Below, in pieces: positions 1,144 through 22,476 of a DNA stretch of 32,000 nucleotides. Each line of letters begins with the position of its first letter. Within the stretch, counting starts at the first letter, position 1. Location: contig AP031373.1 in NCBI GenBank assembly GCA_042850255.1, positions 1 through 32,000 on the forward strand. The letters run 5' to 3'. A program made the position numbers and the translations under genes. A model generated the notes under the pieces. The model was not told the DNA's origin and made no database searches. It saw only the letters and a list, made by a program, of their open reading frames with translations. Source of the stretch: Nanobdellota archaeon. GTDB lineage: Archaea; Nanobdellota; Nanobdellia; Nanobdellales; Nanobdellaceae.

Positions 1144-1833
1144 TTATATATAAAGGTAAACATCCTCTATAGAATTATTAAAAAATAAAACATATTGCAA
1201 AGAAGTTACTGATGAAGGTTGTAGATTTAATAACTTTGGTTCTGATATAATTTTATTACCATTATACATTTTTAATATTGATATATAATTAGTTATAAAT
1301 AATATATTTTCATTAGTTGTTATATTTATTGTAGAATTTCCATATAGATAAGAATTACAATATACCAAACTTCTATAATATATATCATATACAGATACAT
1401 TATAATAATTATTACAATTTATTGAAGAATCTGATGATGAAACTGATAAAGAATAATTATTATCAAATACAAAAAATGATAAATAAGTTGTTAAATTAAC
1501 ATTAGAATTTTGAATAATATTTATTTGATTATTATAAATATTATAGTACACTTCTACACAATTATTACATATATATGGATTATTGGATACGAATATGACT
1601 GAAGGATAATAATATGCAGAAAATGATATTCCTATATAATTATAAACTTCTACAGGATTTAAATATTTAGAATAATAATAAGAAGCCAAATATAATTTTT
1701 GATATGATATAAATTGGCTCATACCATTGGAATATGTTACAAGACCTTCTACTAAAGTATGATAGATATAGATAAATATATATATAAAAACTGCCAATGT
1801 TATTAATACTTCTATCCAGCTCTGACTCTTCAT
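1144..1833 (-). CDS. Putative type IV pilin-like / class III signal peptide protein (Asn/Tyr/Ser-rich extracellular domain)
   Basis: The N-terminus is MKSQS-WIEVLITLAVFIYIFIYIY: a short charged leader followed by a hydrophobic helix. The K-S-Q motif parallels the K-G-Q and R-A-Q motifs of the archaellin genes in this window. Its start overlaps the stop of the upstream FlaJ/TadC-like gene (ATGA at 1830-1833). I recognise no homology in the rest of the protein. Confidence 0.45.
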   Translation of the reverse strand: MKSQSWIEVLITLAVFIYIFIYIYHTLVEGLVTYSNGMSQFISYQKLYLASYYYSKYLNPVEVYNYIGISFSAYYYPSVIFVSNNPYICNNCVEVYYNIYNNQINIIQNSNVNLTTYLSFFVFDNNYSLSVSSSDSSINCNNYYNVSVYDIYYRSLVYCNSYLYGNSTINITTNENILFITNYISILKMYNGNKIISEPKLLNLQPSSVTSLQYVLFFNNSIEDVYLYI

Positions 1834-3095
1834 ATTGATACATTTAACTCTTCTTGCTTAACATATTCTTTTCCATCATATTTTAACATAGCAGTTACTA
1901 TATATTGTCCTGTAGTATTGAATGTTATTGAAGTAGAATAATATCCATTTTGTATTATCTGATATATTTGATTATGATATCCATTACCTAAAATTGTTAT
2001 AGTTAATGGTGCATTGCTTATTGGTTGTGCATCTGCAGATGCATATACTTGGATATTTACTGGAGTATATATGTAAGCATTTTGAGGATATATATTTAAG
2101 GTAAAACTAACAGTAACAGGTAAAATAAATATTATGATAGTAAGTAATCCAATAAAAGAATTTACAGCAACATGTTTTACTGAAGAAATTATTTTTCCAG
2201 ATTCTGATATACCCATTATTATTGCAGTAGAAATCCCTATTAATATTATAGAGAGCGCAGTAACAAATTTTAACCAACCATAATCTATAGAATATGAGAA
2301 AAAGTTGAATGAGGACTTTATAGTAGAAGCCATTAGTTGGCTAGTTATCAAAGGTTGTAAAGTAGATAAGATAGATATTGATAATCCTATAAATACTATA
2401 TATATAACATATAAGACCATTATTTGTTCAGATACGTAAGATCTTTTCAACTGTTCTAATTCTCTCATACCTTCTAAATCATCATATAATCTTTTCAATA
2501 CTCTTGATATATCTCCTCCACCCATGTATGTTTCTAATATGACATAATTTATCATCTTTATTTCTGAAATATCTTCAAAATATTTATTAAACAATGAAAA
2601 AGCTTTTTCGAATGGTATTCCCCACTTTATCCAATTATATAATTTCCTAATAAATATATTTAAATATCCTAAATTTATTGATGAAACATAATTTAGAGCA
2701 TCTAACAATGTCATACCAGAGCTTAAACTTTCTGATAAATAAGATAAAAAGTATGGATAATTATTTAATATGCTCTCTTCTATTTTTCCTTCCATATACT
2801 TATAAAAAATATATGGTAGCCCTCCAATAATGTATAAAACAATAATTAAAACAGATAAAGTTAAATAATTCATATATAATTTAAATATTAGACCAAAAAA
2901 TCCAATTATTGCAGATAATAATATAGAAATATATAAAACTAATCTATCTTCTTTTATATAACTTCCAAAAAAATATACTTCTTTATAATGATTAGGATCT
3001 GAAACATTTGATAATGGTCCTATAAATTTTTCTACGAAGGAAATATTATTCTTTTTACTTACTTTATTTACCTGTACTTGTATGTTATTCAACAT
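1830..3095 (-). CDS. FlaJ/TadC-like polytopic membrane protein with a single T2SSF domain (resembles the C-terminal half of FlaJ) and an extra C-terminal beta-rich extracytoplasmic extension
   Basis: Two N-terminal TM helices are followed by NNYPYFLSYLSESLSSGMTLLDALNYVSS...GIPFEKAF...YMGGGDISRVLKRL. This is the typical LPxFL..L...aG.sl..AL / GGd pattern of T2SSF (GspF/PilC/FlaJ) cytoplasmic domains. More TM helices follow. The last ~90 aa (NIYPQNAYIYTPVNIQVYASADAQ...) are beta-rich. Confidence 0.65.
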   Translation of the reverse strand: MLNNIQVQVNKVSKKNNISFVEKFIGPLSNVSDPNHYKEVYFFGSYIKEDRLVLYISILLSAIIGFFGLIFKLYMNYLTLSVLIIVLYIIGGLPYIFYKYMEGKIEESILNNYPYFLSYLSESLSSGMTLLDALNYVSSINLGYLNIFIRKLYNWIKWGIPFEKAFSLFNKYFEDISEIKMINYVILETYMGGGDISRVLKRLYDDLEGMRELEQLKRSYVSEQIMVLYVIYIVFIGLSISILSTLQPLITSQLMASTIKSSFNFFSYSIDYGWLKFVTALSIILIGISTAIIMGISESGKIISSVKHVAVNSFIGLLTIIIFILPVTVSFTLNIYPQNAYIYTPVNIQVYASADAQPISNAPLTITILGNGYHNQIYQIIQNGYYSTSITFNTTGQYIVTAMLKYDGKEYVKQEELNVSI

Positions 3096-3130
3096 TATAC
3101 TTTTATTTTACTACCTCAATATTTAAATAT
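3096..3130. promoter_or_regulatory. Back-to-back divergent promoter region for the two FlaJ/TadC-like halves
   Basis: A 35-bp gap separates the divergent ATGs. TTTAAATA (3121-3128; the same on the opposite strand) lies about 25-32 nt upstream of the minus-strand ATG. CTTTTATTTTA (about 3100-3110) lies about 21-31 nt upstream of the plus-strand ATG. This fits leaderless archaeal promoters, but AT-richness makes TATA calls weak. Confidence 0.3.
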
Positions 3131-3979
3131 ATGGCGGGATTTATCGATAGCTTTTTTGAAGGGATAGAAAAAGATATTCTAACTGCAAGAATTAATAAAA
3201 GTATTACTGATTATATAGAGAATGCTAAGAAATATTCTATAATTATAGCTGCATTTTTATCAATATTTATATTTATTATACTTCTTATAGTATCTATAAA
3301 AATATTACATAACTTAATTATAATCTTTCCAATAATTTTTTCTATATTATTTGGAATAGTTGGATTTTTTATTGGATTATATTTCTTTAAAATTTATCCA
3401 AAATTTATTATTGGAGATAGACAAAGAAAAATAGATAATTCTTTATATTATGCAACATTATTTATGGCCTCTTTAGCATCATCCGGAGTAAATCCAAAGG
3501 CTATGTTTGAACTATTAGCAAAATATGATGAGTTCTCAGAAATAAAGAAGGAAGCTCAGGATATAATATACTTTATAGATACTTTAGGATTATCTTTACC
3601 TCTGGCATTAAAAAGAAAAGCTGAATATTCTCCTTCTAAGGAATGGGCGTCTATACTAGAAGGTATAAGATCAATTATAATGGAAGGAGGGGATTTAGAG
3701 ACATATTTATATGAACAAGCTAGAAAATTAGCAGATGAATATAAAAGAAAGATAATAGAATATTCTAATAATTTACAAATATTTTTAGAAATATATATAA
3801 CATTAATTGTAGTAGGTGTAATATTCCTTATTATTTTAACAACATTAATGGGATCTATTGCTGGAACAAGCGAACAATATATACAAAGTTTACAGTTATT
3901 GAGTATATTAATAATATTGCCATTAGGTACTGCTTTATTTGTAATATTATTAAAAGCTATAAATCCTTTCCAAACGTAA
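3131..3979 (+). CDS. flaJ: FlaJ/TadC-like membrane protein with a single T2SSF domain (resembles the N-terminal half of archaellum/pilus platform protein FlaJ)
   Basis: The ORF is 282 aa. It contains RKIDNSLYYATLFMASLASSGVNPKAMFELLAKYDEFSEIKKEAQDI...LSLPLALKRKAEYSPSKEWASILEGIRSIIMEGGDLETYL. The id..LP.a..ym..la.aG..p and PS...GGDL..yL motifs are characteristic of FlaJ/TadC, with flanking TM helices. Confidence 0.75.
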   Translation: MAGFIDSFFEGIEKDILTARINKSITDYIENAKKYSIIIAAFLSIFIFIILLIVSIKILHNLIIIFPIIFSILFGIVGFFIGLYFFKIYPKFIIGDRQRKIDNSLYYATLFMASLASSGVNPKAMFELLAKYDEFSEIKKEAQDIIYFIDTLGLSLPLALKRKAEYSPSKEWASILEGIRSIIMEGGDLETYLYEQARKLADEYKRKIIEYSNNLQIFLEIYITLIVVGVIFLIILTTLMGSIAGTSEQYIQSLQLLSILIILPLGTALFVILLKAINPFQT

Positions 3980-3982
3980 TTA

Positions 3983-4642
3983 CTAACTTTTTGTAGAATA
4001 TAAATATAGTATATTGCTTACTACTTGTTGAGTATTATATACCTTTATTTCTCCATTTTCTAATGCATTTTTAAATATTTTTATTATATTAATACTTTTG
4101 TTTTCTTCCAGATCATTTTTTATTTCATAATATACTGGATAACTTATATATATTTCTAAAGTAGAATTAATATCTGGTAAATAACTATATGGTACATTTA
4201 CTAATCCTGATGGTGCTAGGGTATATGATGCACAAGAATTTTCTATGCATAAAATAAAATAATATTGGGGATATATTTTACTAAACTGATTATAATACAA
4301 ATTATAATTGGCTTTAGCTAATGAATTATTAGATATATAGTTATCAACAAGATGTATAAAATTTATAGATTCATTGGGATTAGAAAAATTTAGATTATTA
4401 TTTTTTATTATTCCGTTTAAAGAAATTCTTAACAGATCATAACCAGTAATATTTAATTGATAATAATTTATTATTTCTGTTCCATTTGGCAATATCTTTT
4501 CTACATATGGAAAATTGAGTATATATAGAGGGTAAAATAAATATCTATATATTATAGAAGCTATTATAAGAGAAAATACAAATATAATTAAAAAAACAAT
4601 AAGTTTATCTTTAATAGATGACTTCTTCAATGTTTCTTTCAT
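3983..4642 (-). CDS. Hypothetical membrane-anchored extracytoplasmic protein
   Basis: The ORF is 219 aa. It has an N-terminal signal-anchor (KLIVFLIIFVFSLIIASIIY) followed by an Asn/Tyr-rich domain with several N-x-S/T sequons. I recognise no family. Its start overlaps the 3' end of ndk by 32 nt. Confidence 0.4.
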   Translation of the reverse strand: MKETLKKSSIKDKLIVFLIIFVFSLIIASIIYRYLFYPLYILNFPYVEKILPNGTEIINYYQLNITGYDLLRISLNGIIKNNNLNFSNPNESINFIHLVDNYISNNSLAKANYNLYYNQFSKIYPQYYFILCIENSCASYTLAPSGLVNVPYSYLPDINSTLEIYISYPVYYEIKNDLEENKSINIIKIFKNALENGEIKVYNTQQVVSNILYLYSTKS

Positions 4643-5727: not shown

Positions 5728-8700
5728 ATGAACTTGTTCGGTAAAGATAAGAAATATTTAATAGAGATACTAATAATATTGTTTATATTTTTATTTACAT
5801 TTAGTACCAAAGGTTTGTTAATGAATGCCTTAGGTAACTATGATTTAGTAGGACCAGATGCTTATCTATTTTTTACATACTTCGAATCATTGGTATATAA
5901 TCATATAGTACCATATGTAACATATCATCTAGATTATCCATTACCATTTATATTTGATAACAAAGATTTGGTGTCATACTTTGCTTATCTATCATATTTA
6001 ATAATTACTTTTATGATAGATCATTTCTCATCAGGTTTCTTTGGATTCTTATCCCTTTTAGGAATACATCCAGCAGCTACTATAATTACTTGGCTATCTG
6101 CAGATTTTACAAACGCATTAACACCAGCAATAGCAGGAATAGTATTTTATTTCTTGGCAAAAGATATATTTAAAGATAAATATTTAGCATTATTTTCTGC
6201 AATAATATTTGCCATAAATCCTTTCTTGACATCTAGATTGGTATTATTTGATACAGAACTTGGGGCAGTCATATTTGTAGTACTATCTTTCTACTTAATA
6301 ATAAAATATATAGATGCAAAGCCAGAAAATAATAATTACAAAAGATTATCATTAATCTTATATTCATTAATTGCATTAATTATCTTCTATAAAACATTTT
6401 TGCTTCCAAATTATGATACATATTTAACAATAGAATTATTTATATTCTTCTTTTTACTTTTATTTTTATATCCAGTATTCAAAGGAACAAGAGAATATTA
6501 TTTAACATTATTAGTATTTACAACCACTTTAGCTAGAAAAGGATGGGGTGGATGGATAATTATACCTATGATATTTGGACTATTTTTATTAATAAGATTC
6601 TTTTATAATAGAGATTACAAAGAAGCATATTTCTACTTACCATATATGGGATTTACTGGAATATTAGAAAATGACTTAAGTTATCATCTATTTTTAGCAG
6701 ATCATAATATATTGTTTGAATTATCTCTAGGTATACTATATTTATATGATTTAATAAAGAATACAAAGATATTTGAAAAACTAAATAGTTTAAGTATAGG
6801 AAAAATAATAAAAGATAATGAATTATCTAAGAAAATATTATTATTTTTAATAATAGTACTAATAGGCTCTCCAATAATTATTGAAAAGGTTATATCTAAT
6901 TTCTTAATAAATCCATTTACTGCTAGTAGGATGGGATCTACAATTGCAGAATTCCAACCCACTCCAGCATCTTATTACTTTAGTTTATTTGGTTCTGTTG
7001 GAGTATTATTTACTTATTTAGGATTGTCTTATTTAATATTCAATAAAGATAAACCAAAAAAGTATCTATTTTCCCAATATATTTTTATATTTCTACTTTC
7101 TGGATCAGAAATAGTATTTGGATCTTCAATAGCTTTAATAATAATATATTTGTTAATATATAGTATAGCAATATTTTCTATTAGTAAAGGAGAAAAGAAA
7201 TACGCAATACAATCTGTCTTTGAAGTATTAACATTATCTGTTGCTATGTACTTTATTGTATTCTCAGATATAGTAATAAATGGTAATTATATTAGTATCG
7301 CAGCATCTTGGATGATATTCTTTATATTAATATTACCATATATAATATTAATTAATAGAAATATGAATGATAAAGAAATCTTTTCTCTTTCTTTAAGTTT
7401 CTTAACTATAATAGTAGGAAAATATATATTTGAATTAGTATATTATGCAGGATTTGCATTACCTTTATTATATAGTTATGGAATACAAACATTAGAAATA
7501 TTTAAAGATTATTATGAGAAAATAAAAAATACTGTAAAAGAATATTTAAATTTAATATTGCTAGTAATATCTTCCATATCTTCAATTTCCTTAATATTAT
7601 ACACAACATCTTTATATAAATCTTTTGGTTTATCCACTCCAGGATTAGTATTAATTTTCTTTGCTTTACCATTATTCTTCCTAATTTATTATATAATAAA
7701 CGAATATATATTAGAAAAAGAGACTAATAATTTAAATATATTAAAATATGGAATAATATTATTATCTCTATTTGGTGTATTTACAATATATAATACAAAT
7801 ATATATGGAGCTCCAGGATATATATTAAATTACTTTATTCCATTATATACTCAAGGAACTCCAAATTATGAAATACAAGCATTTACATGGATAAATCAAA
7901 ATACTCCTCCAAATGCTATAATAAATTCATGGTGGGATTATGGATATTATATATATTCTATAGGAAATAGAACTGCATGGATAAATGGAGCAAATTCATA
8001 TCCATATTGGAATCATTTAATGGGAAGATACGGATTATCTGCAGATAATATAACAAAAACATTACAATTATTCTACGTACATGCAGATTATAATTATCAA
8101 ACATTTAAAACATTAGAGTTATTTAATGAAAATTCTGTATTTTACGATTATTTATATAAAAATTTAGGATTTACTAAAGAACAAGTTGAAGAAATAGAAA
8201 AATTGAAGGAACAATTAGGATATAATAATTGGATAAAATTATTATATTCATTTAATGGCTCTCCAGAATCAATAGAAGAATTTAATCTATCACAACAAGA
8301 TATACAACTATTAGAAAAATTATATAATATGAATTATCTAAAACCTGCATACTTATATATAGATCCAACAGATGTTGGAAAATCATTTGCTTTCCAATTC
8401 TTAGGATCTAATGAAAGTTTTAATAAAGAATCTTGGGTATCTCAATTTTATTCCGGATCAACACAAAGTCCAGGAATTCAAATTCCTACAGTATATTATA
8501 ATGGATATTATATATTTGCACAAAATAATACATTATTTTACTTTGGTGAAGAACCATTAGACCAAAATCTAAATATAAATGGTACTGAAATAGAAAGATG
8601 TATATATGTACAAGATTTAGGAATAATAAACCAAAACTCTTGTGGTTTAATTATTGGAGCATCTTTAGTATTTAATCAATCTATTGTAAGCCAAAGCGGA

Positions 8701-9222
8701 ATATATGAAACATTAAATGTAAATAATATAAATCCAAATAATTTAGTCAGAGCATATGTATATATATTAGATCCATTAACAAATCAAGAATATGCATTAA
8801 CATTGAAATATGTAGATTTAGATGGAGAACTAGTAACATTTAATAATGCAACATATGGAGGACTATTATATGTAACGCCAGTAGTATCATTATTACAACA
8901 AAATAATCCAGTAGGAGAATTCTTATATGCATATTTTATTTCACAAAAGGCAACAAAATATGATTGGGTACAGTTATATTTCTTAGATAATAGTTATAAT
9001 GGAACATTCCAATTAGTATATTATACAAATGAACAATATGGATTACCTCCAATAATTTATGAAGATATTGCACCAGCAAAAGTATGGAAAATAAACTTCC
9101 CAGAAAACTTTACAGTACCTGATTATTTATATTGTTTATACTTAGCAACTAATTTACAACAGATAAATGAATGTGCAGAGATATATCACTTTAAACCTTA
9201 TACAAATTACTACAATGTATGA
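5728..9222 (+). CDS. aglB: Dolichyl-phosphooligosaccharide-protein glycosyltransferase AglB (STT3 family oligosaccharyltransferase), unusually large at 1164 aa
   Basis: The catalytic WWDYGYYI (WWDYG) motif is at about aa 735 (nt about 7931-7945). An acidic GPDAYLFF motif lies in the first external loop region. There is a very long polytopic N-terminal region and a soluble C-terminal domain of about 430 aa. Confidence 0.9.
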   Translation: MNLFGKDKKYLIEILIILFIFLFTFSTKGLLMNALGNYDLVGPDAYLFFTYFESLVYNHIVPYVTYHLDYPLPFIFDNKDLVSYFAYLSYLIITFMIDHFSSGFFGFLSLLGIHPAATIITWLSADFTNALTPAIAGIVFYFLAKDIFKDKYLALFSAIIFAINPFLTSRLVLFDTELGAVIFVVLSFYLIIKYIDAKPENNNYKRLSLILYSLIALIIFYKTFLLPNYDTYLTIELFIFFFLLLFLYPVFKGTREYYLTLLVFTTTLARKGWGGWIIIPMIFGLFLLIRFFYNRDYKEAYFYLPYMGFTGILENDLSYHLFLADHNILFELSLGILYLYDLIKNTKIFEKLNSLSIGKIIKDNELSKKILLFLIIVLIGSPIIIEKVISNFLINPFTASRMGSTIAEFQPTPASYYFSLFGSVGVLFTYLGLSYLIFNKDKPKKYLFSQYIFIFLLSGSEIVFGSSIALIIIYLLIYSIAIFSISKGEKKYAIQSVFEVLTLSVAMYFIVFSDIVINGNYISIAASWMIFFILILPYIILINRNMNDKEIFSLSLSFLTIIVGKYIFELVYYAGFALPLLYSYGIQTLEIFKDYYEKIKNTVKEYLNLILLVISSISSISLILYTTSLYKSFGLSTPGLVLIFFALPLFFLIYYIINEYILEKETNNLNILKYGIILLSLFGVFTIYNTNIYGAPGYILNYFIPLYTQGTPNYEIQAFTWINQNTPPNAIINSWWDYGYYIYSIGNRTAWINGANSYPYWNHLMGRYGLSADNITKTLQLFYVHADYNYQTFKTLELFNENSVFYDYLYKNLGFTKEQVEEIEKLKEQLGYNNWIKLLYSFNGSPESIEEFNLSQQDIQLLEKLYNMNYLKPAYLYIDPTDVGKSFAFQFLGSNESFNKESWVSQFYSGSTQSPGIQIPTVYYNGYYIFAQNNTLFYFGEEPLDQNLNINGTEIERCIYVQDLGIINQNSCGLIIGASLVFNQSIVSQSGIYETLNVNNINPNNLVRAYVYILDPLTNQEYALTLKYVDLDGELVTFNNATYGGLLYVTPVVSLLQQNNPVGEFLYAYFISQKATKYDWVQLYFLDNSYNGTFQLVYYTNEQYGLPPIIYEDIAPAKVWKINFPENFTVPDYLYCLYLATNLQQINECAEIYHFKPYTNYYNV

Positions 9223-10222
9223 AGATTATATAATTGCTTTATTGCCACCGATTATTTCTTTTTTAATAACATATTTTCTAGTAAAAAAATGGATACCAAT
9301 AGCACATAAATATGAATATGTAGGAAAAGATATGAACAAATATGAAAAACCAAAAGTTGCAGAAATAGGTGGTTTATATTCTATAATTGGAATAATATTT
9401 GGTATTTTAATATATATAGGATTAAAAGTATATATTTTTCATACTACAGAAGATCTTGTGCAAGTATTTGCTATATTAACTACACTATCCTTAGTTACAA
9501 TATTAGGATTATTTGATGATATACTTGGATGGAAAGAAGGATTAAAGCCTTGGGAGAAACCTTTACTAACATTAATATTAGCATTACCATTAATGATAAT
9601 ATCTGCAGGAGTCCCATATTTAAATTTTCCATTTATAGGCACAATTTACTTTGGGATCTTATATCCATTAATAATTGTTCCAATAATTATAATGGGTACT
9701 TCAAATGGTTTTAATATGCTAGCAGGATATAATGGATTGGAAGCTTCAATGGGAATATTATTAATTGGTGCTTCAGGATTAGAATTATATCTATTAGGCC
9801 AATATTATTTAGCAGAAATAGCATTAATTTCTATATTTTCTATTTTTGCATTTTTAATATTTAATTGGTATCCTGCAAAAGTTTTTCCGGGAAATTCATT
9901 TACATATGGAATAGGAACTTTATTTGGTACATTAGTAATATTGGGAAATATTGAACAATTTGGACTGATAATATTTTTATTATATATACTGGAATTATTA
10001 TTATTTGTAAGAGGATTATTAAATCATGTGTACAAAGAGAATTTTGGAATACCAAATGAGAAAAATGAATTAAAAGAACCTTATAATAAAATATATAGTG
10101 TAACTCACTTATCTATAAAATTAAACAGAAAGTTATTTAAAAAGGCGACAGAAAAGAGTGTTGTTTTAACTATATTGTTCTTCCAAATAATATTAACAAT
10201 AATAGCATTTATGTATGGTTAA
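9215..10222 (+). CDS. UDP-GlcNAc:dolichyl-phosphate GlcNAc-1-phosphate transferase-like (glycosyltransferase family 4, AglH/MraY-WecA type)
   Basis: It is a polytopic membrane protein with LGLFDDILGWK and TSNGFNMLAGYNGLEAS motifs (DD...; N.xN.laG.NGLe of GT4 phosphotransferases). I chose the ATG at 9215 (MYEDYIIALLPP...), which overlaps the aglB stop by 8 nt. The ORF-track start at 9167 lies inside aglB. Confidence 0.78.
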   Translation: MYEDYIIALLPPIISFLITYFLVKKWIPIAHKYEYVGKDMNKYEKPKVAEIGGLYSIIGIIFGILIYIGLKVYIFHTTEDLVQVFAILTTLSLVTILGLFDDILGWKEGLKPWEKPLLTLILALPLMIISAGVPYLNFPFIGTIYFGILYPLIIVPIIIMGTSNGFNMLAGYNGLEASMGILLIGASGLELYLLGQYYLAEIALISIFSIFAFLIFNWYPAKVFPGNSFTYGIGTLFGTLVILGNIEQFGLIIFLLYILELLLFVRGLLNHVYKENFGIPNEKNELKEPYNKIYSVTHLSIKLNRKLFKKATEKSVVLTILFFQIILTIIAFMYG

Positions 10223-11993
10223 AGTTATTTTAATATACTTTAATAAAAATGAAGAAAAATTATTATATAATTTATCTATATTAAATAGTTTTTGTAAAAA
10301 AAATAATTATGAATTAATATGTATAACTAAAAAAAGTTTAAGAGAATATGCTATAAAATTAAAAAACAAGTTTAATAATGTAAAATTTTACTTAATAAAT
10401 AATAAAAAAGATATTAGAAAATTAAAATTTAACGATACAACAATATTAATATATAATAATACAAATATTAACTTAAAAGAAGTAAAAAAAGGAATAGAAG
10501 ATTTAGAAGATAATAAAATAATAGTATTTAAAAATAAAATATATAAAATTAATATAATAAATCCGTATATAGTAATAGGAAGAAACATAGATATATATGA
10601 AGATTTTATTTTAACATATTTATCAAATAATAGAAAATATATAGAAAGTAAATATAATATAAACATTAATTTTTATATATTATTTACCAATTTATTAATA
10701 TTTATAAAAAAATCTATTGATTTATTTAATAAATTATTAAATATAAAATATATTAGGGATTATATAAATGAGAAAATAGGTTTAATATCTTATAAAGTAA
10801 TTACTTTTTTCTTAGTAATTATATTAGCAAGAATATTAACTCCAGAATTTTATGGAAGTTATGTTACTATATACAATTTTATTTTAATTTTATCTACCTT
10901 GATAGGTTCTTCAAATATTATATTGCAAAAAGTTTTATCAGAAAATATAAATAATATAGAAAATCAAAAAAAATATTTAAAATTAGATATTTATACAAAA
11001 ATACTTTTTTCATTAATAGCTATAATTATTATATCTTCAATTATTCCTTTCTTATTGAAAAGTATATTTTATTCTTATAATATTTTTATAATTTATATAA
11101 CATTTTTAACATCTATTTTATTAGCATTTGATGGCCTAGGATTTTCAATATTTTATTCATATTTAAAAATAAAGGAAGCAAGAAATTTATATATACTAGA
11201 AGCAATTTTTAAATTTATATTTGTAGTTTCTTTATCATTAGTATTAAAATCTTCTGGATTTATTTTTGGATTGTTATTAGCTTTTTTATCTATGGATATA
11301 GTAGAATTATATTTAATATTAAGACAATATCCAGAATTATTTGGATTTATTAAAGAAAAAATAAACAAGGATATATTTAAAAATTATCTTAGTTTAATAT
11401 TAAAAATAAGTTTGCCTCCATTATTGTTTAATCTATATTCTTCCATAGATATACAAATACTAAGAATATTTACATCTTTTCAAGATGTAGGATTATTTTA
11501 TAATGCAATGATAATAGTAGGAACAATATCTACAGTATTTTCAGTTTCTGGTATAACGCTACCAAGAATATTAAGATGGGAAAAAGAAAAAATAAAAGAA
11601 AGATTAAGCAAAATAATTGGATTACAATTATTGATTAATTTAATATTATATGGTTTGTTAATATTAATTGCTCCATATTTAATATTAATATTTTTTGGAC
11701 CTTCATATTTATTATCTGCAGAATTATTAAAATATTTAGGGATAATATTAATTATTCAATCATTTAATATATTTCCATTAATATTATATAAAAAAGGATT
11801 AGAAAAATATTATACAATATATTCTATAACTTCTTCTATTTTATCAATAATCTTAGATTTAATATTAATTCCTAGATTTAAATTAGAAGGAGCAGTCGCA
11901 TCTGCAATATTGGGAAATTTATTTAATGTTTTAATAGGATATATAATTTATGAAAAAGAATTTGATAATATCTATTCCAGATCTCTTTCTTGA
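10215..11993 (+). CDS. Wzx/RfbX-type (MOP superfamily) oligosaccharide flippase with an unrecognised N-terminal cytoplasmic extension of about 185 aa
   Basis: From about aa 185 it reads KVITFFLVIILARILTPEFYGSYV..., followed by about 12 TM segments, typical of polysaccharide biosynthesis/flippase proteins. The N-terminal 185 aa are soluble, Lys/Asn-rich and unassigned. It overlaps the upstream gene by 8 nt. Confidence 0.65.
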   Translation: MVKVILIYFNKNEEKLLYNLSILNSFCKKNNYELICITKKSLREYAIKLKNKFNNVKFYLINNKKDIRKLKFNDTTILIYNNTNINLKEVKKGIEDLEDNKIIVFKNKIYKINIINPYIVIGRNIDIYEDFILTYLSNNRKYIESKYNININFYILFTNLLIFIKKSIDLFNKLLNIKYIRDYINEKIGLISYKVITFFLVIILARILTPEFYGSYVTIYNFILILSTLIGSSNIILQKVLSENINNIENQKKYLKLDIYTKILFSLIAIIIISSIIPFLLKSIFYSYNIFIIYITFLTSILLAFDGLGFSIFYSYLKIKEARNLYILEAIFKFIFVVSLSLVLKSSGFIFGLLLAFLSMDIVELYLILRQYPELFGFIKEKINKDIFKNYLSLILKISLPPLLFNLYSSIDIQILRIFTSFQDVGLFYNAMIIVGTISTVFSVSGITLPRILRWEKEKIKERLSKIIGLQLLINLILYGLLILIAPYLILIFFGPSYLLSAELLKYLGIILIIQSFNIFPLILYKKGLEKYYTIYSITSSILSIILDLILIPRFKLEGAVASAILGNLFNVLIGYIIYEKEFDNIYSRSLS

Positions 11994-14838: not shown

Positions 14839-15309
14839 TTATAAATATATTTTATTTACTTCATAATAAACAATATCTCTTTCTATATCAATTATTCCTA
14901 ATAAAATGGTATTAATATTTTTTTCTTCCATAATTTTTAATATTTCAATGAAATCTAGAAATTCATTTTCAAATATCGGATATATATAATATTTAATTTT
15001 TTCTTTTTTCTCATCTTCATATAAAATTATTAAATTTTTATCTATTCCAACATAATATCCTTTATTTCTTAAGTCTTCAAATATATAATATTTTTTCATA
15101 TCTATTTTTTCTTTATATTTTCTAATAAAATCTATAAAATTATTTATATTTTCTAATTTTATCCAACCTTTTTTTAATCCATATAAAATTTCTTCAGGTT
15201 CTAATAATATATAATTATCTTCTAATTTACCTAATCTACCAATTTTATCATAATATTCTTTATTTACATAGAATTTATTATTTATTTCTCTAACTATAAC
15301 TTTTTCCAT
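14839..15309 (-). CDS. tRNA splicing endonuclease, structural (beta-type) subunit
   Basis: The ORF is 156 aa. YILLEPEEILYGLKKGWIKLE and YYIFEDLRNKGYYVG match the EndA N-domain and linker. The following GxKFGxDFxVY / His / Lys catalytic segment is absent. It overlaps the upstream catalytic subunit gene by 16 nt. Confidence 0.6.
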   Translation of the reverse strand: MEKVIVREINNKFYVNKEYYDKIGRLGKLEDNYILLEPEEILYGLKKGWIKLENINNFIDFIRKYKEKIDMKKYYIFEDLRNKGYYVGIDKNLIILYEDEKKEKIKYYIYPIFENEFLDFIEILKIMEEKNINTILLGIIDIERDIVYYEVNKIYL

Positions 15310-15713
15310 TTTATTTCCAAGAATATATTATCCTTTATACAATATAATATATTTTTTCTAGTACTATGAGCAACTCTATTTTTTGCTAAGAAATCATACA
15401 CATCTATTTTTTCTCCATAATTTATTGGTATTGCAATCCATTTAGAGTGTTCTCCTTTTTTTTCATATATTCTAAATACTCCTCCAAATTTTAACCCTGT
15501 TCCAACAATATATCCCTTTTTCCTAAAATATTTATAAAAATAATAGTATAATTTTATCCTTTCATTATTTAAAAAATAACTTATATCTAATTTTTCTCCT
15601 TTATCATTATAAACTTCTATTTCTCCTTTTTCTAATAAATATAAAGCATCATAAAAATAAATTATTTTATCTTGATCTAAAAATATCCCATCTTTATATA
15701 ATATTCTTCTCAT
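15294..15713 (-). CDS. endA: tRNA splicing endonuclease, catalytic (alpha-type) subunit
   Basis: FRKKGYIVGTGLKFGGVFRIYEKKGEHSKWIAIPI and RVAHSTRKNILYC carry the Tyr/His/Lys catalytic-triad context of EndA. I set the start at MRRILYKDG (ATG 15711-15713). The ORF-track N-terminus (MVERRTCNPQVRGSSPRGG) is a read-through of the tRNA-Thr gene. Confidence 0.75.
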   Translation of the reverse strand: MRRILYKDGIFLDQDKIIYFYDALYLLEKGEIEVYNDKGEKLDISYFLNNERIKLYYYFYKYFRKKGYIVGTGLKFGGVFRIYEKKGEHSKWIAIPINYGEKIDVYDFLAKNRVAHSTRKNILYCIKDNIFLEIKWKKL

Positions 15714-15742
15714 AAATTGATAATATAAGACTTTTTTATAAA

Positions 15743-15815
15743 TGCCGCCGCGGGGACTTGAACCCCGGACCTGCGGATTACAAGTCCGCCGCTCTACCAA
15801 CTGAGCTACGGCGGC
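15743..15815 (-). tRNA. tRNA-Thr (anticodon UGU), contiguous, no intron, no encoded CCA
   Basis: The reverse complement is GCCGCCGTAGCTCAGTTGGTAGAGCGGCGGACTTGTAATCCGCAGGTCCGGGGTTCAAGTCCCCGCGGCGGCA. It has acceptor GCCGCCG/CGGCGGC, anticodon stem GCGGA/TCCGC with loop CTTGTAA, and T-arm CGGGG-TTCAAGT-CCCCG. Confidence 0.93.
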
Positions 15816-15850
15816 ATAAAATAAAATTTCAAAAAATAAAATTTAAAACT

Positions 15851-16702
15851 TTAGCTTCCTCCTAGAGAAACAACTGATTGAGCTAAAACAGTTGGTATAG
15901 CCCCTCCATATTGCGCAGTATAACCATTTACTGGAGTTATTTGTAAGTTATAATTTTCATTTGTAACCAATGGTTTTGGTAAATATAGCATTATTTCATA
16001 TTCTTCTCCTGTAGTTAAATATACACTTTCTTGATTTACTGCCAATCCTATCATTGCATATGGATCACTTATTCCTACTTCATTCATATCCTGTAATATT
16101 TGGAATAATTGATTTAATGATATTGGAAATCCTATTATTGAAGAATTTAATCCTATAGTACATGAAGATATTGTACCATTTGTATATGTAAAGTTAACAT
16201 ATACATATTGAGTTGTTACATTATTCAATGTTTGACATATCTGCGTATTATCTATTGTTACATTTTGTACATTTACTTGATTATCAAACATAAATCCTGT
16301 TATAATTATATTTCCTCCTTGTAATACTCCATATATTGCTGTAGGTTCATATGATGATGGAGAATATGAAAATACATCTCCATTACTATCTGTTAATAAT
16401 ATATCCACATCTTCAAGATTTATTGGACCAGACCCTGGCATTAGAGATACTACTGGGGAGAATACTGTTATTTCCTGTAAATAATTATTTAAACTTTGTG
16501 TAGATGGATCATATTGATATCCAAATACTTGTGTTATTTGCATTCCTGTTGTAATTCTTTGTTGTGCTTGTGCACCAGTTTGTAATGCTTTAGATTGCAA
16601 AGCACTAGTTGTATATATTATTACTCCAGCTGCTACTGCTGCTGTTACTATTATTGCTATCAGTATTATTAATGTTGATAAACCAAACTGAGCCCTTACC
16701 AT
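15851..16702 (-). CDS. flaB: Archaellin (archaeal flagellin FlaB/ArlB family)
   Basis: The N-terminus is MVRAQ-FGLSTLIILIAIIVTAAVAAGVIIYTTSALQSKALQTGAQAQQRITTGMQITQVFG. This is the archaellin class III signal peptide plus the conserved AAVAAGV.I.T...LQ.KA..TG core. I prefer the ATG at 16700-16702 because the track start at 16717 is a GTG. A TTTATAA-like element lies about 30 nt upstream. Confidence 0.85.
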   Translation of the reverse strand: MVRAQFGLSTLIILIAIIVTAAVAAGVIIYTTSALQSKALQTGAQAQQRITTGMQITQVFGYQYDPSTQSLNNYLQEITVFSPVVSLMPGSGPINLEDVDILLTDSNGDVFSYSPSSYEPTAIYGVLQGGNIIITGFMFDNQVNVQNVTIDNTQICQTLNNVTTQYVYVNFTYTNGTISSCTIGLNSSIIGFPISLNQLFQILQDMNEVGISDPYAMIGLAVNQESVYLTTGEEYEIMLYLPKPLVTNENYNLQITPVNGYTAQYGGAIPTVLAQSVVSLGGS

Positions 16703-16749
16703 ACTATAATTTAGCACGTTCGGTAATTATAAATTTTACCAGCTGGTAG

Positions 16750-18098: not shown

Positions 18099-21000
18099 TT
18101 ATGAATAATATAGCGCATATACACCAAATCCTGATGGACTAAATGTTGTGTTAGTAGATATTACATTACCAACTCCACTAATTATTTTTTCTACTATATA
18201 ATTACCTGAAGGAATATCAATAAATGTTATATTTGCAATAGGAGATCCTATTAATAATATTCCCGAAGCAAAATTATATTGTATACTATTATTGGTTATT
18301 GTACTAGAAAATCCTGATGCATAATTAATAAATGCATTACCATTATATAATATATCAATACTCCCTGTGGATACTGTTAAATTATCTATATATCCTTGTC
18401 CATTTATTGATACTCCCAATTGTGAATTATATGAAGATATATTTGTAGCATTTCCTACAATATTTAATCCAAATACTCCTCCATATGTTATTACATTACT
18501 TATATTATTTGGTGCAGATTCGTATAATCCAAATACTGATCCTACATTTATTGTATCATTATTTACATTATTTCCTGATGATCCTAGATCTATGCCAAAT
18601 ATATTTGCAGTTATATAATTATTTAATATATTATTGTTATATCCATTATTGATTTTTATTCCAAATATATTTGCTATTACATTATTATTTTCTACATAAT
18701 TATTTATCGCATTTCCATCGAAATCTACTCCAAATATATTTGCATTAATTGTATCGTTATTTATTATCACATTTTCAGGATTTAAATCATATATTCCCCA
18801 TACACTTGCAGTAATATATGAATTTTCTATTGTAGAATTTTGGAATGTACCTGTTCCATATATTGCTCCAATATTTCCATTTATATTTGAATTATATATA
18901 TTTAATACTGATGGATTTTCTACTTGTATTGCAAATAATCCAGAATTTATATTTGAATTGTATATATTCAATGTTCCATTATCTAATCTTACTGCAAATA
19001 GATTAGTTTGTACATTTATATTATTTAATGTTACATTTGAAGATTCTACATCTATTACTGGTAATCCTGGATTTGCAGGTTCAAATAGTACATTACCTGT
19101 TCCTAATAATGTAATGTTTTTACCTTGTGGATTTATTAATAAATTGACTAAATATACTCCTGGAGTAAATACTACAACTGGAGTATTATTATTTATTGCT
19201 CCTTGGATTACTCCATTTATTTGTGTTGAAGATTCTGTAGGGGTTACATTATATACATCTACAGCATTTGATTGATAGTATATTACTTGTGGACTAGTTA
19301 TATATGTTAATCCATAGTTATTATTTGCATATATTCTATACCATAATTGATAATATTTTCCATTAAATGTTGCATATTGCTGTAATATTCCATCAAAAAA
19401 TACATCACTACATTGTGTAGAGTTTGAAACAGTTATCCATTGATTATTAGATTGATTTAAGAATTGTATTGCACAATAATCTGTTCCTAATGTATTATCA
19501 TATACATTTCCATATACTTGTAATAACCAATAATCTAACACTGTTCCATTTGATGGAGTTGGAGAAATATAGGATACATTAAATTCTGGAGGAGGTAATT
19601 GATAAATATATATTCCAGTACTATTTGTTAATCCAGTAGGAGATTGTATTGTTAATTCTATTGAAATATTTCCTCCATTTGGTATTATACTATATAGTCC
19701 TGGTAATCCGTTTGATGAATTATTATACCTTAGATATACAGTATTCGTTCCTGGATTTACATTTATTGTATATGTATTTCCATTTATTGTTACATTTACT
19801 GTTGGATAATTTGTATAAAATGTTATATTTAATGCATAATAATTACTTATTGTATTATTTGCTGGAGAAGAAATATATATTATTGGATTTGGATATACAT
19901 TTAATGTGAATATTGTTGAATTCTCTAATCCAGTTACAGTGTCTTTTCCTATAAATGTGATATTATATTGTTGATAGCTATTTACATTTGGTGCAGTAAT
20001 TGAAAATATATAACTTTCCCCTGAAGAAATATTTACTTCTGTTGGAGAACAAATTACTCCTGAAGGAGCTAGACATTCTATTGTTATATTATCTCCCAGA
20101 TTATCTGTTCCATTTACTTGTACATATATTGTTTGTCCTGAATTAACACTTGCAGATGTTTGATTTAATGTTAATGTTAAAGTTTCAACTACCACTGTTA
20201 CAGATGTAGTATTATAAGTACTTGTAACAGTATCTGTTGCTGTAATATTTACTAAATATGTTCCTGGAGATGTGTTAGATGATGCAGTTATAGTTAATGT
20301 AGAACTACTTCCAGATGATATTATATTAGAAGAAAATTTACAAGACCAACTAGAAGGTACACTACATGACAAATTTAAATTATCTTCATAGTTATCCGAT
20401 GCTGTTACTGTTATTGAAGTAGAACCACCTGGTGTTATTCCAGTATAAGGAGGATTAGTTGATACAGTTATTACTTCTTGTGGAACTGTTACTGTTATTG
20501 AAGTAGTATTATAATTACCTGTATCTACATCTTTTGCAGTAATATTTACTATATAATTGCCAGGAGTAACAGTTGTTGATGCTGATATATTTAAAGTAGT
20601 AGATCCTTCCGATGGTATTGGATTAGGAGATATTGTACATGTAAAACCTGTTGGACATGATACAGATATGTTTAAACCATATCCATAATTATCTGAAGCA
20701 GTAATTGTAGTCGTATTATACTTACCAGGTATAACTTGCACATTTGAAGAAGATACAGAAATGGTTTCTGGTGGGATATTTACAGTAATAATTGTATAGT
20801 TTGTTGCATTATTTGGAGCTGTACCAGTTACATTTACTAAATATGTACCTGGAGCAATATTATATGTAGAAGTTATTGTTAATGTTGCTGTTCCATTTGG
20901 AGTTACTGTAGATGGTGATAATGAACAACTTAAATCTGGATTATTTGTTGTACAAGATAAATTAACTGGTAAAGGATTTGCATTTGTTATTTCATTTACA

Positions 21001-21758
21001 TATATTGTTGTAGTATTTGATTGTCCTGGAATTTGAGTAATTGTTGAAGGTGAAGAAGACATGTTAAATAAAAATATTGGAAATATAAATACTGTTGAAG
21101 CTCCATACATATTTGTTGGTGTTCTCTTATTTACTCTTGCATTAACAGTTATAGCAGCATCAACTGTATAAGTACCTGGAGATAAGTCTTGACAATATGC
21201 AGCATAGACTGATGTTGCAATTCCAGAACTTGTTAAAAATATTTGAGAACATCCTGCAGGTAATGTTACACTAGAAATATATGCACCATTTCCTGTACTT
21301 CCAACAGAAATTAATATATAAACTGAAGAAGGTTCTGTCAATGTAAATGATATTGGCCAACCATAGTTAACTTGAGCATTAACACCATTAGAATAGCTAC
21401 TTGTATTTGTAACATACGTATATGAAGTAAAGTTATTTACCGTAATACCCCCAACTGTATAAAATCCAGCATTAGTAGTAATAGAACAAGAATTTGTACT
21501 AGAATAACCAACTACTGCATAATTTGAACTATTAGCTAAAACTGTAAAACTAGAAGTTAATGTAGCTCCATTTGCACTAGCTTCACATAGATATAAACTA
21601 CCTGAAGGAAGAGTTATAGATGTTGAAGCAGATGTATTACTATATCCTACTGTATATGCTCCTTCTTGAGAATGTATTGGCTTCAACAATACTAAAGTAA
21701 ACAATATTATAAATATTACAAGTATTCTTTTTATAATAGTTTTATAATTAAATTCCAT
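18099..21758 (-). CDS. Large secreted surface protein: Sec signal peptide, N-terminal beta-rich domain, 4 tandem Ig-like repeats, middle domains and a C-terminal right-handed parallel beta-helix; candidate S-layer protein or adhesin
   Basis: The ORF is 1219 aa. The signal peptide is MEFNYKTIIKRILVIFIILFTLVLLKPIHS|QEG. There are four repeats of about 97 aa with a paired-Cys pattern (...LS/VSC...xSC...PGxYxVNxT...). The PbH1-like repeats are (N)N.I..N.FGI... I counted about 52 N-x-S/T sequons by hand. There is no C-terminal TM anchor. Confidence 0.7.
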   Translation of the reverse strand: MEFNYKTIIKRILVIFIILFTLVLLKPIHSQEGAYTVGYSNTSASTSITLPSGSLYLCEASANGATLTSSFTVLANSSNYAVVGYSSTNSCSITTNAGFYTVGGITVNNFTSYTYVTNTSSYSNGVNAQVNYGWPISFTLTEPSSVYILISVGSTGNGAYISSVTLPAGCSQIFLTSSGIATSVYAAYCQDLSPGTYTVDAAITVNARVNKRTPTNMYGASTVFIFPIFLFNMSSSPSTITQIPGQSNTTTIYVNEITNANPLPVNLSCTTNNPDLSCSLSPSTVTPNGTATLTITSTYNIAPGTYLVNVTGTAPNNATNYTIITVNIPPETISVSSSNVQVIPGKYNTTTITASDNYGYGLNISVSCPTGFTCTISPNPIPSEGSTTLNISASTTVTPGNYIVNITAKDVDTGNYNTTSITVTVPQEVITVSTNPPYTGITPGGSTSITVTASDNYEDNLNLSCSVPSSWSCKFSSNIISSGSSSTLTITASSNTSPGTYLVNITATDTVTSTYNTTSVTVVVETLTLTLNQTSASVNSGQTIYVQVNGTDNLGDNITIECLAPSGVICSPTEVNISSGESYIFSITAPNVNSYQQYNITFIGKDTVTGLENSTIFTLNVYPNPIIYISSPANNTISNYYALNITFYTNYPTVNVTINGNTYTINVNPGTNTVYLRYNNSSNGLPGLYSIIPNGGNISIELTIQSPTGLTNSTGIYIYQLPPPEFNVSYISPTPSNGTVLDYWLLQVYGNVYDNTLGTDYCAIQFLNQSNNQWITVSNSTQCSDVFFDGILQQYATFNGKYYQLWYRIYANNNYGLTYITSPQVIYYQSNAVDVYNVTPTESSTQINGVIQGAINNNTPVVVFTPGVYLVNLLINPQGKNITLLGTGNVLFEPANPGLPVIDVESSNVTLNNINVQTNLFAVRLDNGTLNIYNSNINSGLFAIQVENPSVLNIYNSNINGNIGAIYGTGTFQNSTIENSYITASVWGIYDLNPENVIINNDTINANIFGVDFDGNAINNYVENNNVIANIFGIKINNGYNNNILNNYITANIFGIDLGSSGNNVNNDTINVGSVFGLYESAPNNISNVITYGGVFGLNIVGNATNISSYNSQLGVSINGQGYIDNLTVSTGSIDILYNGNAFINYASGFSSTITNNSIQYNFASGILLIGSPIANITFIDIPSGNYIVEKIISGVGNVISTNTTFSPSGFGVYALYYS
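18309..19226 (-). repeat. Coding region for parallel beta-helix (PbH1-type) repeats within the surface protein gene
   Basis: About aa 845-1150 contain iterated ~20-24-aa units such as NNDTINANIFGVDFDGNAINNYVENNNVIANIFGIKINNGYNNNILNNYITANIFGIDLG. Coordinates are derived from my manual residue counting. Confidence 0.6.
19884..21056 (-). repeat. Four diverged tandem repeats of about 290 bp (about 97 aa) encoding Ig-like domains within the surface protein gene
   Basis: The repeat units start near aa 235, 331, 429 and 526. They share the pattern xPGxxxTTTITASDNYxxxLNxSxSCPxxxxCxxSPxxxxxxGSxTLxIxAxxxxxPGxYxVNITAxDxxTxxYNTTSxTVxV. Confidence 0.65.
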
Positions 21759-21858: not shown

Positions 21859-22476
21859 CTATTGTAATGATTGGTAACCTAAAGAACTACAAGATGCATA
21901 TCCTGTTGCAGGATTTACAGCACAGTTCATTAAATCTAAATATTGTGTTGGACTTATTATTAATCTAACACCCATTGTTTCATGAGTAGTTGACCAATTT
22001 ATTGTTTCATTTAAACAATTACCTCCTAATATTGTTACATTTACTTCAGCAACAGTATGAGCAGGTATTGCTTGTCCATATGATAATGTTTGATTTGTAT
22101 TTACATCATATACTGATGCAGATACAATACTAGCTAATGAAGGATTAGTTGCTAAATTTGCAAACAATGTTGGTATTGAACAGAATACATCTCCGTTTTT
22201 ATCAGTAAAGTCTAATGTCCATCCAACTAATGGTATACTTGTTGATCCTAAATTATATAAAGTAAATGATACTGTTGCTACAGTTCCAAATTCTGAATAT
22301 TCTACATCATGAATTGCAAATTGTGGTACTTGAGATTGTTGTTGTATTAATGAAACTCTTGCTAAAGCAGCTCCAGATGTTTTTAAGTAAATATTAAGTA
22401 TTACATAACTTGCTATTGTTGCAATTGCAACTAGAAATATAAAAAGAAAAAGAGTTTGAAAAGCTTGCCCTTTCAT
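21859..22476 (-). CDS. Archaellin-like / class III signal peptide protein (divergent; could be a minor archaellin or a FlaF/FlaG-like protein)
   Basis: The N-terminus is MKGQA-FQTLFLFIFLVAIATIASYVILNIYLKTSGAALARVS, with a prepilin-type KG|Q motif and a hydrophobic helix. The ORF is 205 aa and starts 1 nt downstream of the preceding archaellin gene. Confidence 0.55.
   Translation of the reverse strand: MKGQAFQTLFLFIFLVAIATIASYVILNIYLKTSGAALARVSLIQQQSQVPQFAIHDVEYSEFGTVATVSFTLYNLGSTSIPLVGWTLDFTDKNGDVFCSIPTLFANLATNPSLASIVSASVYDVNTNQTLSYGQAIPAHTVAEVNVTILGGNCLNETINWSTTHETMGVRLIISPTQYLDLMNCAVNPATGYASCSSLGYQSLQ

Follow-up and report, generated by a model that had tools for sequence, protein, structure and literature searches.

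In archaella, the platform protein ArlJ/FlaJ is one polypeptide of about 550 amino acids (aa) with two T2SSF domains. In Tad (TadB/TadC) and Epd-like archaeal pili, two platform genes carry one T2SSF domain each, a state read as gene fission; one gene corresponds to the N domain, its partner to the C domain (Denise et al. 2019, PMC6668835). Two TadC-like genes are also present in the clade 4B loci of Thermoproteales (Makarova et al. 2016, PMC4858521), and Nanoarchaeota have several FlaJ/TadC homologues, with two pilus systems and an archaellum (Jarett et al. 2018). Here, we analyse such a pair of genes in a stretch of 32,000 nucleotides (nt) from a Nanobdellota archaeon (contig AP031373.1, positions 1 to 32,000), hereafter named the window. 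An earlier note on this DNA had taken the pair for a FlaJ/ArlJ protein split in an unusual way. In our reading, the two open reading frames (ORFs) are likely the two subunits of a two-gene platform of the PilC/TadC superfamily, belonging to a DPANN-type type IV pilus and not to an archaellum. The rearrangement at this locus is real but ordinary, and split platforms of this kind are already known: single-domain platforms encoded by two genes have been reported from Tad, Epd and further pili of archaea, and a 2016 annotation lists the nanoarchaeal orthologues of the window pair as two TadC genes (Wurch 2016 supplement).

The window has a G+C content of about 24% and carries a gene set typical of hot-spring Nanoarchaeota (helicase-half reverse gyrase, archaellins, SufB/SufS, TmcA, GINS and a split tRNA endonuclease). 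Among public genomes, both platform genes have their closest relatives in Nanopusillaceae. Identity of the N-half to its counterpart is 75% in the metagenome-assembled genome KM4331-08, 66% in Candidatus Nanopusillus acidilobi, 65% in Nst1, 63% in Nanobdella aerobiophila and 47% in Nanoclepta. The locus comprises the following features (TM, transmembrane helix; Ig, immunoglobulin; bp, base pairs):

1144-1833, minus strand: prepilin-like gene, 229 aa, class III signal; orthologue of N. acidilobi Nps_01910
1830-3095, minus strand: C-half platform gene, 421 aa, 5 TM; orthologue of N. acidilobi Nps_01915
1836-2111, minus strand: Ig-like beta-sandwich domain ending the C-half (aa 329-420), from the predicted structure and Foldseek
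3096-3130, strandless: divergent intergenic gap of 35 bp with two TATA-like elements back-to-back
3131-3979, plus strand: N-half platform gene, 282 aa, about 4 TM; orthologue of N. acidilobi Nps_01920
3983-4642, minus strand: membrane protein, 219 aa, anchored at its N-terminus; syntenic in all 14 loci of the family, no family match

The published gene table of N. acidilobi has the same order, with Nps_01910, Nps_01915, Nps_01920 and Nps_01925 followed by NDK. In this table, Nps_01910 and Nps_01925 have 1 TM each, while Nps_01915 (5 TM) and Nps_01920 (4 TM) are both named 'TadC' and both assigned to arCOG01808 (Wurch 2016 supplement).

As the earlier note had proposed, each platform ORF contains a single Pfam T2SSF domain (PF00482). 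Against a gathering score of 25.2 bits, the domain reaches 52.6 bits in the plus-strand ORF (aa 111-236, nt 3461-3838) and 55.9 bits in the minus-strand ORF (aa 116-242, nt 2370-2750), in both cases over double the threshold. Alignment to the NCBIfam ArlJ models covers positions 13-235 of 555 for the plus-strand ORF, in the N part, and positions 190-453 of 465, in the C part, for the minus-strand ORF. Our own N- and C-profiles agree with this assignment, including the N-half signature already seen on the plus strand. Against five true two-domain relatives, the N-profile scored 136-161 bits on the N domain and at most 35 on the C domain, and the C-profile 55-120 bits on the C domain and at most 5 on the N domain. 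Since each profile prefers its own domain of the two-domain relatives, the halves are colinear with one protein of about 600-700 aa, and such colinearity is a signature of gene fission. The C-half AlphaFold model (15-sequence alignment, pLDDT 79) shows the T2SSF bundle and five TM helices; together with hydropathy scans, it describes a polytopic T2SSF bundle flanked by TM helices. A PDB sequence search returned no match for the N-half and a weak PilC match (E 0.007) for the C-half profile.

All 46 homologues of the N-half found in a word-index search have about 280 aa and one domain. An exhaustive HMMER search with the N-half among 1.84 billion representatives gave 1,532 matches, of which the best 65 or so are all 260-320 aa long; fused proteins appear only below E~1e-27. 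Matches of 570-740 aa were considered as fused platforms. Most were rejected, since a long Lys-rich extension at the N-terminus precedes their single domain, and five are truly two-domain. The single-T2SSF proteins of 570-740 aa (P0240, P0245, P0253, P0257, P0262, P0263, P0281, P0282, P0299, P0300, P0306-P0308, P0312) form a family with one C-terminal N-half-like T2SSF domain. Their extension of 300-470 aa is Lys/Glu-rich, probably cytoplasmic, and opens with a conserved Y-x-x-Y/K coiled-coil-like segment. These proteins are another single-domain platform variant.

The two ORFs are separated by 35 bp, as first noted, and their head-to-head junction recurs at 13 further distinct loci, taken from other assemblies and including two complete genomes (L005 and L019 are one contig and were counted once), as well as in an independent Logan contig of 9.6 kb. 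A mis-join near position 3100, or decaying remnants of a once full-length gene, would suit reduced nanoarchaeal genomes with many split genes, and the orthologues went undetected in the N. acidilobi proteome. The repeated junction, with intact ORFs in all of these loci and in two closed genomes, the conservation of the two-gene state over several phyla and the pattern of substitution make such an origin extremely improbable. Closely related Nanopusillus genomes were compared in pairs (synonymous divergence, dS, 0.22-0.28). The ratio of nonsynonymous to synonymous rates (dN/dS) ranges from 0.11 to 0.20 in the N-half, from 0.09 to 0.20 in the C-half, from 0.08 to 0.17 in the 229-aa gene and from 0.21 to 0.36 in the 219-aa gene. 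Purifying selection acts on all four, and none is a remnant. In N. aerobiophila, 735 of 736 coding sequences are reported as expressed. Frameshift and artefact, dismissed in the earlier note, are thus set aside here too. Of its further proviso, that a full-length FlaJ might exist elsewhere and leave these ORFs as remnants, the first half holds in relatives (see below) and the second does not.

With each GTDB species represented by one genome, a scan gave 80 loci, in which all ORFs were scored with N-half, C-half and operon-ATPase profiles. At 67 of 67 DPANN loci outside the Nanopusillaceae, the N-half is followed on the same strand by the C-half with few bases between them, never fused. These loci belong to Aenigmatarchaeota, Woesearchaeota/Nanoarchaeia, Undinarchaeota, Nanohaloarchaeota, Naiadarchaeum and Micrarchaeota. 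The comparison of fused with split versions, suggested at the outset, therefore gave split genes only among the DPANN loci scanned. Identity to the window is 26-40% for the N-half (tblastn E 1e-28 to 1e-50) and about 24% for the C-half. Provided that the contig is long enough, the N-half is immediately preceded by an ATPase gene in the same orientation, with the exception of L034 (Nanobdellati archaeon, groundwater), where the ATPase gene has the opposite orientation, lies about 5 kb from the N-half and adjoins a thermosome gene. Because L034 is separated as well, the ATPase-platform junction has been broken more than once.

The arrangement C-half on the minus strand, N-half on the plus strand, head-to-head, is present in 14 of 14 distinct loci of Nanopusillaceae and Nanoclepta, window included, and none of these has a secretion ATPase within 10 kb. 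Since the genes are tandem and unfused at the 67 other DPANN loci, the two-gene state is ancestral. The head-to-head layout without an ATPase is, as judged from locus comparison, a shared derived character of the hyperthermophilic Nanopusillaceae and Nanoclepta. An inversion and an ancestrally two-gene system had been put forward as alternatives; both apply, with the inversion coming later.

The same distribution bears on whether the halves work together at all. They could be uncoupled, each being a single-domain platform or accessory for a different paralogous ATPase, as in actinobacterial Tad with TadB alone. Single-platform Tad systems are known (PMC6668835), relatives hold five ATPases and seven T2SSF genes with a lone 6-TM TadC beside ATPase Nps_03100, and the window halves are separate transcription units on opposite strands. 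However, where the contig permitted the check, neither half was found alone at any locus, and the two genes are adjacent at all 14 family loci and all 67 tandem loci. They also share a conserved 35-bp control region, which suggests co-regulation, and evolve at similar rates. We regard uncoupled halves as unlikely and retain the reading as two subunits of one platform.

Like bacterial TadB/TadC and like EpdJ/EpdK of Methanococcus maripaludis, the window pair consists of two contiguous single-T2SSF genes of N- and C-type. Unlike them, its genes are divergent, no ATPase is found at the locus, and the C-half carries a predicted extracellular Ig-like domain. Contiguity of a two-gene platform with its motor ATPase is seen in the orthologous DPANN operons and not at the window locus. 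Gene order differs too: both platform genes precede the ATPase in Epd (PMC6668835), whereas in DPANN operons the ATPase is followed by the N-like and then the C-like gene. The secondary ATPase TadZ/FlaH, which stands beside the motor in Tad/Epd (PMC6668835), is not among the adjacent genes in the tandem loci L001 and L003; the one ParA/MinD-type gene of L001 lies about 5.6 kb off, on the opposite strand. The DPANN pilins-ATPase-T2SSF-T2SSF operon resembles the window pair in gene sizes, TM layout, N/C correspondence and, in Woesearchaeota, the Ig-like tail. Its ATPase and platform genes are co-directional, nearly abutting, and placed after pilin genes and often a thermosome gene, whereas in the window family the pair has separated from the ATPase and pilin genes, lies head-to-head and adjoins a pilin-like gene of another, longer kind. 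Genome papers on DPANN archaea usually list this operon just as 'FlaI/FlaJ'.

By gene content, the DPANN tandem operon is best described as a type IV pilus operon and not an archaellum operon. Genes upstream of the ATPase encode canonical class III signals (MRKG↓ITPVI..., ..KGQ↓SLVFEQVLLF..; arrow, predicted processing point). The pilins match TIGR02537 (31.6 bits, cut-off 20) and, weakly, Pilin_N, DUF7289 and DUF7266. The ATPase is FlaI-like, at 395 bits against a FlaI equivalog cut-off of 550, with a weak PilB3_C match; the Pfam matches to PilB3_C, DUF7266 and DUF7289 fall under the gathering scores. No archaellum-specific Pfam family occurs on called neighbours in the L001 and L003 gene tables, where several neighbours are unannotated. 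The weak PilB3_C match of the ATPase and the DUF7266/DUF7289-like minor pilins recall the PilB3/PilC3-type adhesion pili of Haloferax volcanii, in which PilC3 is a single two-domain protein. A further likeness is to the 'clade 2' euryarchaeal type IV pili (Makarova et al. 2016, PMC4858521), which include an entry matching the orphan nanoarchaeal ATPase Nst1_088, as identified by matching gene numbers to GI numbers.

This weighs on the proposal that the halves form a split archaellum platform ArlJ/FlaJ, which would assemble the archaellins of the window, 12-19 kb away, with ArlI and ArlH encoded elsewhere. ArlJ/FlaJ is of the same superfamily, and ArlJ models are the best-scoring named NCBIfam models for both halves. 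Moreover, three archaellin or archaellin-like genes lie within the window, orthologues of the pair are called FlaJ in public annotations, and an MK[GS]Q leader is common to the 229-aa protein and the archaellins. Yet the scores remain far under the equivalog cut-offs (85.1 bits against 550, 59.4 against 400), and each half has one domain, on opposite strands, where ArlJ/FlaJ has two in one chain. At the 67 tandem loci, the halves are paired with a non-ArlI ATPase and type IV pilins. Finally, N. acidilobi and Nst1 hold the same pair, assigned to arCOG01808, in addition to a separate FlaJ. According to published work, the archaellum components of Nst1 are complete, with a 549-aa FlaJ of arCOG01809 among them. 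The archaellum set of N. acidilobi comprises FlaI Nps_00925, FlaH Nps_00930, FlaD-E within Nps_00925-00940, and the 10-TM FlaJ Nps_02340 (Wurch 2016 supplement). We consider a split ArlJ improbable, and a platform of a type IV pilus the better account of the pair.

Profile scans (Pfam/NCBIfam) of the window ORFs found no T2SSE ATPase, hence no FlaI/PilB, and no A24 prepilin peptidase, in agreement with the earlier note. The motor ATPase would be supplied from elsewhere in the genome. The published gene table of N. acidilobi contains five secretion ATPases and seven T2SSF-domain genes; the ATPases can be matched to platforms as follows:

FlaI Nps_00925: platform FlaJ Nps_02340, encoded elsewhere
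ATPase Nps_02250: platform Nps_02245, 10 TM, adjacent
ATPase Nps_03100: platform Nps_03105 TadC, 6 TM, adjacent
ATPase Nps_03260: platforms Nps_03255 (4 TM) and Nps_03250 (5 TM), a second two-gene tandem
ATPase Nps_01175 (Nst1_088): no platform

With this equipment, including a second two-gene platform, the picture of a minimal, non-canonical machine drawn in the earlier note does not hold. The sole platform without an ATPase is Nps_01915/01920 and the sole ATPase without a platform is Nps_01175. Before the latter come a thermosome gene and three small genes, of which two have 1 TM in the annotation. Among the 37 tandem loci with enough upstream sequence for this check, about 20, from four DPANN phyla, have a co-oriented thermosome gene 2-4.5 kb before the ATPase, with pilin genes between (L001-L004, L021, L022, L024, L029, L033, L035, L036, L040, L044, L049, L056, L079, L082, L083, L085, L087). 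Since Nps_01175 is the only orphan ATPase and has this ancestral thermosome-pilins-ATPase context, the published table and synteny suggest that the partner ATPase is probably its orthologue. A profile search with two operon-ATPase sequences gave more than 7,840 matches; the 120 listed are all from other DPANN archaea and none is from the 773-kb source contig. The linkage of a chaperonin (Cpn60/TCP1) with the pilus operon is unexpectedly conserved. As to the Nps_03250/03255/03260 system, it looks more Tad/Epd-like than the window pair, and Nps_03280, of ParA/MinD type (arCOG00589, TadZ-like), stands three table entries beyond its ATPase.

Several observations weigh against assigning the pair to such a pilus. 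The separate FlaJ and the candidate ATPase are known from relatives, whose N-half is 63-75% identical, and not from this genome. In the NCBI record of N. aerobiophila, the C-half orthologue is labelled 'FlaJ'. The second two-gene platform of N. acidilobi adjoins Nps_03260, and the choice of orthologues between the two platforms is made from synteny and the ranking of similarities. For Nps_01910-01925, values are missing from the proteome table of N. acidilobi, which was obtained with a method that often misses membrane proteins. The 229-aa protein has no Pfam/NCBIfam pilin match (PF07790, TIGR02537), and no profile matches its globular part to a pilin. Lastly, no prepilin peptidase was identifiable in two nanoarchaea (Makarova et al. 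2016, PMC4858521).

The C-half ends with a domain of eight beta strands after TM5 (aa 329-420), predicted by AlphaFold with pLDDT 83-90. As it follows TM5 while the T2SSF bundle is cytoplasmic, this domain is predicted outside the membrane. Foldseek matched it to the alpha2-macroglobulin MG domain (TM-score 0.72-0.78, root-mean-square deviation 2.3-2.6) and to PKD, CARDB and Fn3-like domains, that is, to generic Ig-like sandwiches only. The beta-rich extension of about 90 aa described in the earlier note is thus present, but the idea that this half had gained it does not stand: C-halves of 377-396 aa in Woesearchaeota/Nanoarchaeia have a homologous tail, with the common motifs ..TF..EV.PQ.., DAQP and GQY. 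C-halves of 290-325 aa in Aenigmatarchaeota, Undinarchaeota and Nanohaloarchaeota end after TM5 and have no tail. Because the Woesearchaeota/Nanoarchaeia C-halves carry it, the Ig-like domain is older than the Nanopusillaceae/Nanoclepta family. It is a trait of the wider Nanoarchaeota and no recent gain.

In the head-to-head family set, the gap between the two genes measures 35 bp in 12 loci and 36-38 bp in three. Its outer two blocks are kept and its centre is variable, even between genomes at about 50% protein identity. One block, TTTTATTT at 3101-3108, is centred about 26 nt upstream of the N-half ATG and becomes TTTATAA in the deepest branches. The other, the palindrome ATATTTAAATAT at 3119-3130, is centred about 28-29 nt upstream of the C-half ATG. 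Archaeal TATA boxes lie about 26-27 nt upstream of the start site. As the conserved blocks sit at this TATA-to-start spacing, the gap may consist of two putative promoters, back-to-back, giving leaderless divergent mRNAs. A sigma-70 promoter scan was uninformative, with 43 sites against 41.6 expected, the model being bacterial.

On the other side of the C-half, its stop codon overlaps the start codon of the 229-aa gene (ATGA, 1830-1833). This coupling and the prepilin-like N-terminus were both pointed out in the earlier note and are borne out, the leader being kept in 14 loci as M[KR][SG][QI]SWIE[VF]L. The predicted leader of the window protein, MKS↓QSWIEVLITLAV..., has the class III motif [KR]-G/S↓ and a Glu at +5 of the predicted mature end. 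A short basic leader followed by a hydrophobic helix, MK[S/G]↓QSWIEVLITLAVFIYIFIYIY, is found in the 14 loci, and Gly replaces Ser in L008 and L020 (MKGQ.., MRGI..). MKGQ is also the leader of the archaellins in the window. Class III leaders in the window are merely 3 residues long (MKG↓Q, MKS↓Q). The family also has four invariant Cys and many N-glycosylation sequons. An hhalign comparison with the DUF7266-like minor pilins of the tandem operons aligned the first 33 residues only (P 0.009), and a single-sequence structure model (pLDDT 49) is unreliable past the N-terminal helix. By motif and context, we call this protein pilin-like; it probably serves as a minor pilin or as a subunit associated with the platform.

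The 219-aa gene is convergent with the N-half, with stop codons 3 bp apart, and overlaps the upstream NDK gene. Its position and the N-terminus of its product are conserved in 14 of 14 loci. The protein has no class III motif at these loci and no Pfam/NCBIfam match. The family was considered as a pilus component; hhalign against pilin-like families was negative, and we did not count it in the system. The gene appears to be part of the co-oriented S28e-L24e-NDK string, and its linkage with the platform may be synteny only.

Overall, the locus probably arose as follows. A two-domain platform gene would have undergone fission within an ancestral operon of pilin genes, FlaI-like secretion ATPase, N-half and C-half. 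The halves would presumably pair as a heteromer mimicking the two-domain protein, their cytoplasmic T2SSF bundles docking the hexameric ATPase and their TM helices handling pilins within the membrane. The operon would have been cut just after the ATPase in the common ancestor of Nanopusillaceae and Nanoclepta; ATPase and pilins stayed, and the platform pair moved. One platform gene would then have been inverted, leading to divergent transcription from the conserved 35-bp region. The C-half, with its inherited and presumably extracellular Ig-like domain, would be co-translated with the pilin-like protein, whose class III signal suggests processing. A bolder version is conceivable but doubtful: the fission in DPANN was independent of Epd/Tad, the Ig-like domain acts outside the membrane, and the Nanopusillaceae pair is shared by paralogous ATPases. 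Independent fission is conceivable because the order ATPase-N-C is the expected product of a stop codon inside a pilB-pilC operon. If this version were true, the Ig-like domain could have a role such as guidance of the filament through the S-layer or host contact, and a compact bidirectional promoter would express a detached pair serving more than one ATPase.

Beyond the platform locus, the window contains these features:

5728-9222, plus strand: polytopic membrane protein, 1164 aa, no Pfam/NCBIfam match
9167-10222, plus strand: GT4 glycosyltransferase, after the 1164-aa gene
10215-11993, plus strand: Polysacc_synt flippase-like gene
14839-15309 and 15294-15800, minus strand: two adjoining tRNA-splicing endonuclease subunit genes (compare Nps_01980 and Nps_01985 in the N. 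acidilobi table)
15742-15816, minus strand: tRNA-Thr, overlapped by the listed 168-aa TTG ORF
15851-16717, 21859-22476 and 22478-23068, minus strand: archaellin or archaellin-like genes, two with clear PF01917 matches
18099-21758, minus strand: beta-helix surface protein, 1219 aa, flanked, with a tRNA methyltransferase, by archaellin genes
28764-30527, minus strand: reverse gyrase, helicase half, 587 aa, TIGR01054 positions 3-555 of 1172, with zf_Rg, DEAD and Helicase_C

The order of the 1164-aa, GT4 and flippase-like genes is kept in L005, where the first protein has 1082 aa. From this context, the 1164-aa protein could be a very divergent oligosaccharyltransferase of an N-glycosylation cluster located between the pilus and archaellin genes. 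The 205-aa archaellin-like protein scores 26.1 bits with PF01917, below the cut-off of 29.5, and the window archaellins have very short MKGQ or MVRAQ leaders. The arl genes are scattered and not clustered, as reported for N. acidilobi. Because the listed TTG ORF overlaps tRNA-Thr, the true start of the 168-aa endonuclease ORF must lie further downstream. No topoisomerase domain or half was found in the 587-aa reverse gyrase gene or adjacent to it; we take this helicase-half gene to be a split reverse gyrase like that of Nanoarchaeum equitans.

Three points seem not to have been pointed out in the literature consulted: the DPANN-wide conservation of the ATPase-N-C order, its break-up and inversion in Nanopusillaceae and Nanoclepta, and the Ig-like domain of the C-half. 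They are modest additions and do not overturn current understanding. The chief value of the analysis is a corrected reading, in which the locus would encode a conserved two-subunit pilus platform found in most DPANN and no broken or exotic archaellum gene. The putative bidirectional leaderless promoter of 35 bp is small enough for direct testing, and the Ig-like domain gives a handle on a platform subunit for localisation and interaction studies. The pilus served by this platform is most likely an adhesion filament, and for nanoarchaeal host attachment, Nps_01175/Nst1_088 becomes the candidate motor for the orphan platform pair.

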